Of a stretch of 64,000 nt of DNA, positions 18,809 through 18,976 are shown in pieces. The notes under the pieces are model-generated. The model did not search any database. It worked only from the letters and a program-made list of their open reading frames with translations, and was not told where the DNA came from. Position numbers and translations under genes: made by a program. How positions within the stretch are numbered: position 1 is the stretch's first letter; each line of letters begins with the position of its first letter. This stretch comes from Candidatus Rhabdochlamydia sp. GTDB taxonomy: Bacteria; Chlamydiota; Chlamydiia; Chlamydiales; Rhabdochlamydiaceae. The stretch lies in NCBI GenBank assembly GCA_051648645.1, contig JBOFFP010000008.1, positions 1-64,000 on the forward strand, given 5' to 3'.

Positions 18809-18976
18809 CTACAAGCATTGTCCCGGACACGTTGCACATGTAACAGTTTGGTTGTAGTTTAAATCTATATCATTGTGTGGATTTATAGATGAGGATGCTG
18901 TAGCTTTTAGCTCAATATCAAGGTTATAAAAATCATCTTCATAATGAATAGATTGATTAGTCTGAGAACTTTGCAT
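18809..18976 (-). CDS. Putative class I lanthipeptide (FxLD-leader) precursor peptide, 55 aa
   Basis: ATG 18976 with a GGAG SD. MQSSQTNQSIHYEDDFYNLDIELKATASSSINPHNDIDLNYNQTVTCATCPGQCL: acidic leader with YNLD box; all three Cys at the C-terminus, interleaved with Thr. Confidence 0.65.
   Translation of the reverse strand: MQSSQTNQSIHYEDDFYNLDIELKATASSSINPHNDIDLNYNQTVTCATCPGQCL

Follow-up and report, generated by a model that had tools for sequence, protein, structure and literature searches.

The window, the whole stretch of 64,000 nucleotides that we analyzed, is drawn from contig C8 of a 12-contig, 1.67-Mb genome (~35% G+C, 93% complete) whose closest named homologs are from Candidatus Rhabdochlamydia. 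Between a gene for an MFS_1 transporter and lepA, it holds a small open reading frame (ORF) resembling the precursor gene (lanA) of a class I lanthipeptide (Table 1). The initial annotation had described a 55-amino-acid (aa) ORF with its own Shine-Dalgarno site and a C terminus rich in Cys and Thr. These features were confirmed: the ORF has the sequence as quoted and lies on the minus strand, two Shine-Dalgarno-like motifs precede it, and all three Cys and three Thr fall within the last 12 residues of the peptide. The MFS transporter had been named as the sole neighbor. It is indeed convergent to the ORF, but it is not the only one, since lepA ends 231 nt upstream on the same strand as the ORF, with a gene for a TLC ATP/ADP translocase further on. 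On the other side, a 355-aa ORF without a Pfam family (positions 15998 to 17065, plus strand) lies upstream of the MFS gene.

Table 1. Features of the precursor locus in the window and related features on other contigs of the same genome
Feature	Location	Coordinates	Strand	Remarks
MFS_1 transporter	window	17381..18604	+	flank, convergent to ORF
Lineage-specific insertion, ~533 bp	window	18675..19207	.	bounded by the MFS-side terminator region and the stop codon of lepA; holds the whole unit
Hairpin	window	18712-18751	.	3' of ORF
lanA-like precursor ORF	window	18809..18976	-	ATG start, 55 aa; coordinates include the stop codon
Putative core, residues 40-55, NYNQTVTCATCPGQCL	window	18812..18859	-	3 Thr and 3 Cys
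Leader, residues 1-39	window	18860..18976	-	paralogous to six C1 precursors
Upstream non-coding part of lanA unit	window	18977..19132	-	presumed promoter and 5' UTR
Shine-Dalgarno GGAG	window	18982..18985	-	five bases before ATG; kept in seven units
Second Shine-Dalgarno-like motif, AAGGAG	window	18992-18997	-	upstream of GGAG
lepA	window	19208..21016	-	flank, same strand, immediately upstream
Eighth lanA unit, pseudogene	L008 (G000 contig C1)	12380-12662		just downstream of LanB
LanB frame-break A run	L008 (G000 contig C1, about 377594-377603)	15595-15604		
Second LanA-LanC-LanB cluster	L029 (G000 contig C12)	8085-12735		

We set the start of the ORF at position 18976 because the ATG and the preceding GGAG are invariant in all seven paralogous units that we aligned (see below); an alternative in-frame TTG upstream of this ATG would give a 79-aa form. 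Neither the 55-aa nor the 79-aa form was found in the public protein collection, and the deposited annotation apparently missed the ORF. Searches of Pfam and NCBIfam with the peptide gave no match at E <= 10, a scan of positions 18400 to 19400 returned no Rfam family, and PDB sequence searches with the profile of the peptide family and with one of its members found nothing.

The leader carries the box D-D-F-Y-N-L-D-I-E-L-K, within which F-Y-N-L-D-I-E-L-K corresponds to the F(N/D)LD type and which presumably resembles the boxes of nisin, subtilin, and Pep5. It closes with a conserved tail, S-I-N-x-H-(E/N)-(N/D)-x-(N/D)-L, and we placed the putative boundary between leader and core there because sequence conservation stops at that point. 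The composition of the core is rare for this genome: among 109,294 16-aa windows sampled from its long ORFs, only 93 contained at least three Cys and at least three Ser/Thr.

The downstream hairpin reported in the initial annotation held up as a structure but not as a canonical terminator. Folding of positions 18696 to 18808 (minus strand) gave -22.5 kcal/mol (z = -3.33), a value equaled by 1 of 200 shuffles. A terminator scan of positions 18300 to 19500 yielded no sites, and no U tract follows the hairpin. The hairpin is real, yet it is no canonical intrinsic terminator.

The ORF lies in a lineage-specific insertion

In three of eight same-genus genomes (G006, G002, and G003), the MFS gene and lepA abut at their 3' ends on a single contig. 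The segment between them in the window (18675 to 19207) had no match in any of the eight other species of the genus, and a search of the same species with the leader profile recovered no copy. Because the gene ends abut in relatives and none of the eight species matched the segment, we place the ORF inside a lineage-specific insertion. By this comparison, the MFS gene is an accidental neighbor outside the lanthipeptide system, since it adjoins lepA in relatives that lack the ORF.

Paralogous precursors sit beside LanB and LanC on another contig

When the window peptide was used to search its own genome, six tandem paralogs were recovered on contig C1 (positions 378122 to 381784; E = 1.1e-12 to 1.1e-3). 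All are on one strand, in the order five precursors, LanC, the sixth precursor, LanB, and an eighth, internally deleted unit. In this last unit the upstream region is intact, the leader stops after "...YDLE," and a remnant of the core tail (CTTGCSTMWCN) remains. The six paralogs, which share the leader of the window peptide, sit directly beside LanC and LanB. Two circumstances that would have told against the initial annotation, a genome devoid of maturases and a lack of homologous precursors, thus do not apply. The window precursor, which had been called an orphan, is one within the window but not within the genome, where the six paralogs and LanB/LanC are found on C1.

Across the seven intact peptides, residues M1, Q8, D15, Y17, L19, I21, K24, S30, and H34 are invariant, three of them (Y17, L19, and I21) within the leader box. 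Conservation reaches the (N/D)-L at approximately residue 39. Beyond it the cores cannot be aligned, the window core included, and each contains 2 to 4 Cys along with several Ser/Thr. At the nucleotide level, the window copy was 70 to 81% identical to its paralogs over the leader-coding sequence and about 50% identical over the cores. The nearest unit (L009 5306-5464) shared 59% of amino acids and 97 of 120 leader nucleotides with the window copy. Leader dN/dS between the window copy and the paralogs ranged from 0.23 to 0.87, which is not decisive.

The repeat is a DNA unit that extends beyond the coding sequence, with roughly 100 to 150 nt before each precursor ATG conserved across units. Over the last 100 upstream nucleotides, the window copy was 70 to 84% identical to the six C1 units. 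This non-coding DNA is as conserved as the leader and contains an invariant T-rich/TTGAT block in the window and C1 units alike. The conservation suggests that the lanA units may share a regulatory site. A sigma-70-type scan near the window copy identified no convincing promoter; it returned 3 promoter-like sites versus 4.3 expected, none of which was placed to serve the ORF. A TTAAGA-N16-TAAAAT-like pair is common to some paralogs, while its equivalent in the window is weak, as the -10-like element is weaker in the window copy than in the paralogs. Contigs from RNA run X12 covered the MFS 3' end and lepA and were absent over 18623 to 19326, but with contigs only and a depth of ~4 to 9, this gap is uninformative either way.

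One could still suppose that the ORF arose by chance or encodes a small protein unrelated to lanthipeptides, given that neither the peptide nor the family profile had a Pfam, NCBIfam, or PDB sequence match. Paralogy to six LanBC-adjacent precursors and homologs in other assemblies effectively refute this, as does the conserved upstream unit; the lack of any Rfam family over 18400 to 19400 likewise speaks against it. We assign this explanation almost no probability.

Candidate modification and processing enzymes

Matches to LanB and LanC in the genome are confined to contigs C1 and C12, with none on C8, in agreement with the initial report that the 64-kb window lacks both. The genome as a whole encodes two LanB proteins (PF04738 plus PF14028) and two LanC proteins (PF05147), one pair on each of these contigs. 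It contains exactly two LanC-like domains, both in stand-alone frames of ~435 aa.

The LanC on C1 (436 aa; PF05147, E = 9.7e-61) aligned with PDB entry 8byk (2.4e-57) and with NisC (1.2e-25). Its WCYG and FCHG stretches are aligned and preserved relative to 8byk; these we take to be the zinc ligands of NisC. The C1 LanB matched both dehydratase models (PF04738, 3.7e-124; PF14028, 4.1e-48), and its family aligned end to end with 9g04 (3e-97), MibB (2.6e-79), and NisB (2.4e-47). In this assembly, however, a run of nine A's where intact homologs need ten breaks the C1 LanB into frames of 90 aa and 932 aa. Copies that are 99% identical and uninterrupted (1,024 aa) are present in other assemblies, and one of these intact copies, from a Candidatus Rhabdochlamydia metagenome-assembled genome (MAG), bears the name lantibiotic dehydratase. 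The break may stem from a faulty assembly, a genuine lesion, or a site prone to slippage.

Structure prediction weakly favors an interaction between the window peptide and the C1 LanB. The predicted complex of LanB residues 1 to 730 with the peptide scored 0.45, while the best control scored 0.00. Alignments had 50 rows for LanB and 12 for the peptide, pLDDT of the partner was 43 to 44, and runs agreed in at least 36% of contacts. Of 157 solved complexes, 116 passed the mark used here, as did 2 of 215 mismatched pairs; scores of 0.60 or less included 18 of the passing solved complexes and both passing mismatches. The pass may also reflect memory, because the NisB-NisA complex has already been solved. 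The model thus lends weak support to predicted binding.

Enzymes for leader removal and export were sought in the same 93%-complete genome. There were no hits to the C39 peptidase family of LanT-type transporters (PF03412; positive in 7 of 14 control genomes) or to the S8 peptidase family of LanP-type proteases (PF00082; positive in 8 of 14 control genomes). A search for LanM with PF13575 also gave no hits in the genome, but it was positive in 0 of 14 control genomes as well and is uninformative.

Two large ORFs, of 714 aa (L009 5988-8132) and 862 aa (L029 13074-15662), lie directly upstream of the C1 and C12 clusters, respectively. The 714-aa protein has a weak, sub-threshold GspN match at its N terminus. 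We considered both as cluster components and rejected them: they are mutually unrelated and without a Pfam family, and the 862-aa protein has no homolog at the cluster loci of G002 and G006.

A second cluster and leader variants among relatives

The second cluster, on C12, comprises genes for a precursor of 66 aa whose box reads V-F-D-L-D, a LanC of 434 aa, and a LanB of 1,026 aa in one uninterrupted frame. Its enzymes are distant from those on C1 (31% identity for LanB, 39% for LanC). It is conceivable that the C12 pair processes the window peptide instead of, or besides, the C1 pair, with an unbroken LanB frame, a precursor box that is also aromatic-D-L-D, and a T-C-A-T-C-P motif common to the C12 core and the window peptide on its side. 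Outside the box, however, the leaders are unrelated (BLASTP aligns 12 of 35 residues, E = 0.003), the low identity between the enzyme pairs argues against interchange, and the leader of the window peptide clusters with those of the C1 array. Nor is the shared core motif significant: 15 of 17 nucleotides match, and 16 of 500 shuffles were as good, for which reason we also rejected as unsupported an origin of the window core in the C12 precursor. We regard processing by the C12 pair as improbable and retain the C1 enzymes as the preferred partners.

At least three unrelated types of LanBC cluster exist within the genus. The cluster of G006 is of the C12 type, with 65% identity in LanB and 64% in LanC. 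On contig C1 of G002 (L040 7764-15611), there is a third LanB type, 27 to 29% identical to both others and accompanied by two LanC genes, at a distance of just ~13 kb from the MFS-lepA junction of that genome. Of 401 sampled genomes of the phylum, 41 had a LanB (40 of them above the cut-off), as had three of the eight species of the genus and none of 14 controls.

In a large protein collection, the profile of the leader family drew 42 candidates, of which 11 reached E <= 0.001. Four of these 11 were from the genome studied here, the remainder came from other assemblies, and those with names were from Candidatus Rhabdochlamydia MAGs. NCBI has named one homolog "gallidermin family lantibiotic." Of 11 family members scanned against NCBIfam, two gave sub-threshold matches to the gallidermin/nisin model TIGR03731 (E = 0.0033 and 0.038; 17.4 and 14.0 bits, the cut-off being 29.3), and the window peptide itself gave none at E <= 10. 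When 400 genomes of the phylum were scored, the profile picked out the genome studied here, two from another genus of the family (E = 6.9e-5 and 0.0026), and a further, doubtful place inside a 508-aa frame. A leader-pattern scan of GTDB species genomes produced 151 pattern matches, none of which was confirmed.

Both matches in the other genus are precursor genes within 2 to 3.5 kb of LanB, and one of them is an array of four with the boxes F-D-L-D-L-E, L-D-L-D-L-E, Y-D-L-D-L-E, and F-D-L-D-I-E. The box pattern near LanB in these two genomes is (F/Y/L)-D-L-D-(I/L/V)-E. LanB-linked precursor arrays of other genera of the family lie at L047 1129-1776 (G194) and L046 1423-1650 (G017), one with four precursors in a row and another with a core of repeated G-C-T-V-S-C-(E/D)-T-C units. 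With F, Y, and L alternating in LanB-adjacent chlamydial arrays, Tyr instead of Phe counts as normal variation for this group. The initial annotation had held its class assignment in doubt over a box that read YNLD rather than FNLD, and that doubt is now settled, the same three residues alternating before (N/D)-L-D beside LanB in related genera.

A sister strain carries the same leader with a different core

Contigs from sequencing runs X1, X2, and X3, which belong to three studies, span the insertion and are ~98% identical to the window in its flanks. For X1, there were 7 differences over 323 nt at the MFS end and 46 over 2,240 nt from position 18876 onward (18876 to 21115). This sister strain keeps 18876 to 19207, apart from a 3-nt deletion at 18932. 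In contrast, 18741 to 18875, which comprises the core and its 3' flank, is swapped for 143 other letters, and 18623 to 18691 is swapped for 84 others. The hairpin stretch between them (18692 to 18740) is kept even though both of its flanks are replaced. We found no other copy of the window core and 3' flank in the genome.

The leader of the sister strain differs from that of the window by S3I, Y12C, the loss of one Asp, F16L, and K24R, exactly the changes seen in P0011, a 58-aa protein from another assembly that was found with the family profile. P0011 has the core NHSPSASCQTCYCTENRCY, in which Cys, Ser, and Thr are once more abundant. That the sister strain has an intact precursor at this locus, with the leader retained and the core exchanged for another Cys/Ser/Thr-rich one, is in our view the strongest argument that the gene is maintained for its product.

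The 46 differences in X1 are unevenly distributed, with at least 27 in the unit (332 nt) and no more than 19 in 1,908 nt of lepA. Since differences concentrate in it, the lanA unit would appear to be far less constrained than lepA or to be under gene conversion. Gene conversion would fit, as I3 and L16 are the consensus residues of the C1 array. Intactness alone is weak evidence of function, because a neutral ORF of this size stayed open in 12 to 32% of simulations at 10 to 19% divergence.

These data also bear on whether the window copy might be a silent or decaying duplicate, i.e., a lanA unit in the lepA-MFS spacer that is unexpressed or unprocessed and heading for loss. Decay would account for its fast divergence relative to lepA, for the lineage-specific distribution (none of eight same-genus genomes), and for the peptide's absence from the public protein collection, and the chance of an open frame under neutrality is appreciable. 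One copy of the C1 cluster is already a pseudogene, and the weaker -10-like element points in the same direction. However, the ATG, Shine-Dalgarno site, and leader box are intact in two strains, and what replaced the core in the sister strain is not debris but a complete, in-frame, stop-terminated sequence rich in Cys/Ser/Thr, of a composition that is rare in long ORFs of this genome. The frameshift in the cognate LanB in this assembly is another point for decay, and the intact copies at 99% identity in other assemblies are a point against it. On balance, we consider a decaying duplicate unlikely and favor a genuine LanA precursor.

DISCUSSION

We consider it probable that the ORF is a genuine member of the class I LanA family that was copied from the C1 array and is modified by the LanB and LanC encoded there. 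The initial annotation had proposed that enzymes from another part of the genome modify the precursor in trans. This proposal gains support at the level of the genome, where LanB and LanC lie beside the paralogs on C1; the link between the window precursor and these enzymes would be in trans and runs through paralogy.

The following sequence of events would accommodate the findings. A whole lanA unit, comprising upstream region, ribosome-binding site, and leader, would have been copied from the C1 array into the place directly after lepA, with a core of its own that was either retained or newly acquired there. Expression of the peptide could then depend on the upstream element of the unit or on read-through transcription of lepA. 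The C1-encoded LanB would bind the leader box Y-N-L-D-I-E-L-K and dehydrate the three Thr of the core through glutamyl-tRNA-dependent glutamylation and elimination. LanC, the neighboring zinc enzyme, would close up to three methyllanthionine rings by addition of the three Cys. Finally, the leader would be cut off by a protease for which there is no identifiable gene here. The sequences themselves establish the paralogy, the enzymes next to the paralogs, the insertion, and the intact ortholog with another core in the sister strain; expression, recognition in trans, the chemistry, export, and any activity against microbes or the host are inferences from them.

The system shares its basic design with the class I systems of nisin and gallidermin. 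In both, LanB (PF04738 plus PF14028) and LanC (PF05147) are separate proteins, and the precursor combines an acidic leader, marked by an aromatic-(N/D)-L-D-aliphatic box, with a short Ser/Thr/Cys core. Their relationship at the level of the TIGR03731 model is confined to the two relatives of the peptide that match below the cut-off. Unlike the nisin and gallidermin systems, this genome yielded no C39 LanT-type or S8 LanP-type peptidase, one LanBC pair goes with seven intact precursors and one pseudogene, the window precursor is encoded on another contig than LanBC, and the producer is an obligate intracellular chlamydia.

Lanthipeptide genes of this kind are already known from chlamydiae, and the window ORF adds one further class I LanA. 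In the accessible text of Marsh et al. (2010; PMC3091789), a LanA-LanC-LanB cluster is reported from Parachlamydia acanthamoebae Hall's coccus, and Chlamydiae are among the phyla with type 1 clusters. Nisin-like clusters in Chlamydiota appear in the available part of a 2025 survey (PMC12506125), and a 2024 paper mentions a lanthionine synthetase in Algichlamydia, with speculation about host protection (PMC11317633). Like the C1 and C12 clusters, the P. acanthamoebae cluster belongs to the same phylum and has the order lanA-lanC-lanB. As described in those portions of the two reports (PMC3091789 and PMC12506125), the P. acanthamoebae and other Chlamydiota clusters were known by genome mining, with no product characterized there. 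As far as the accessible account goes, P. acanthamoebae has one LanA beside LanC and LanB, unlike the present genome, in which an array of five genes precedes LanC, a further copy separates LanC from LanB, and another is located away from the cluster. Among the 400 genomes scored, the leader family described here was confined to this lineage apart from weak matches in two others. Within the full-text literature on chlamydial lanthipeptides and lantibiotics outside subscription journals, we found no characterized chlamydial lanthipeptide and no description of multiple or dispersed precursors for chlamydiae.

In overall architecture, the prochlorosins offer a parallel. Many prochlorosin precursors, with a conserved leader and hypervariable cores, are served by one class II synthetase, ProcM, and some of them are encoded apart from the enzyme; their producer is a free-living cyanobacterium. 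The enzymology differs, with LanM there versus LanB and LanC here, where the genome has no third LanC-like domain. So does the setting, a free-living cyanobacterium versus an intracellular chlamydia, in which promiscuous processing would be a prediction.

Taken together, these observations allow a broader reading that we advance tentatively, as possible but short of likely. An obligate intracellular chlamydia with a small genome may operate a combinatorial class I system in which at least seven precursors, alike in leader but with unrelated cores, depend on a single LanB/LanC pair, one of the precursors being encoded behind lepA on another contig. Exchange of the core cassette at that locus between strains ~98% identical in the flanks could then reflect diversifying selection on the product, for example in conflict with co-resident bacteria or with the host cell. 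With no canonical LanT or LanP, leader removal and release might follow a route new to lanthipeptides.

For the biology of these bacteria, the finding would turn a lone small ORF into a working or recent part of a lanthipeptide system, in a phylum, the Chlamydiota, where such systems are common. What sets this one apart is the number of cores per enzyme pair, the strain-level core swap at a dispersed locus, and the lack of a canonical exporter or protease. The leader/core design, the seven cores, and the core swap between strains would provide a ready set of substrates for heterologous production. The system in the window may thereby offer a handle on the purpose that ring peptides serve in an intracellular bacterium.
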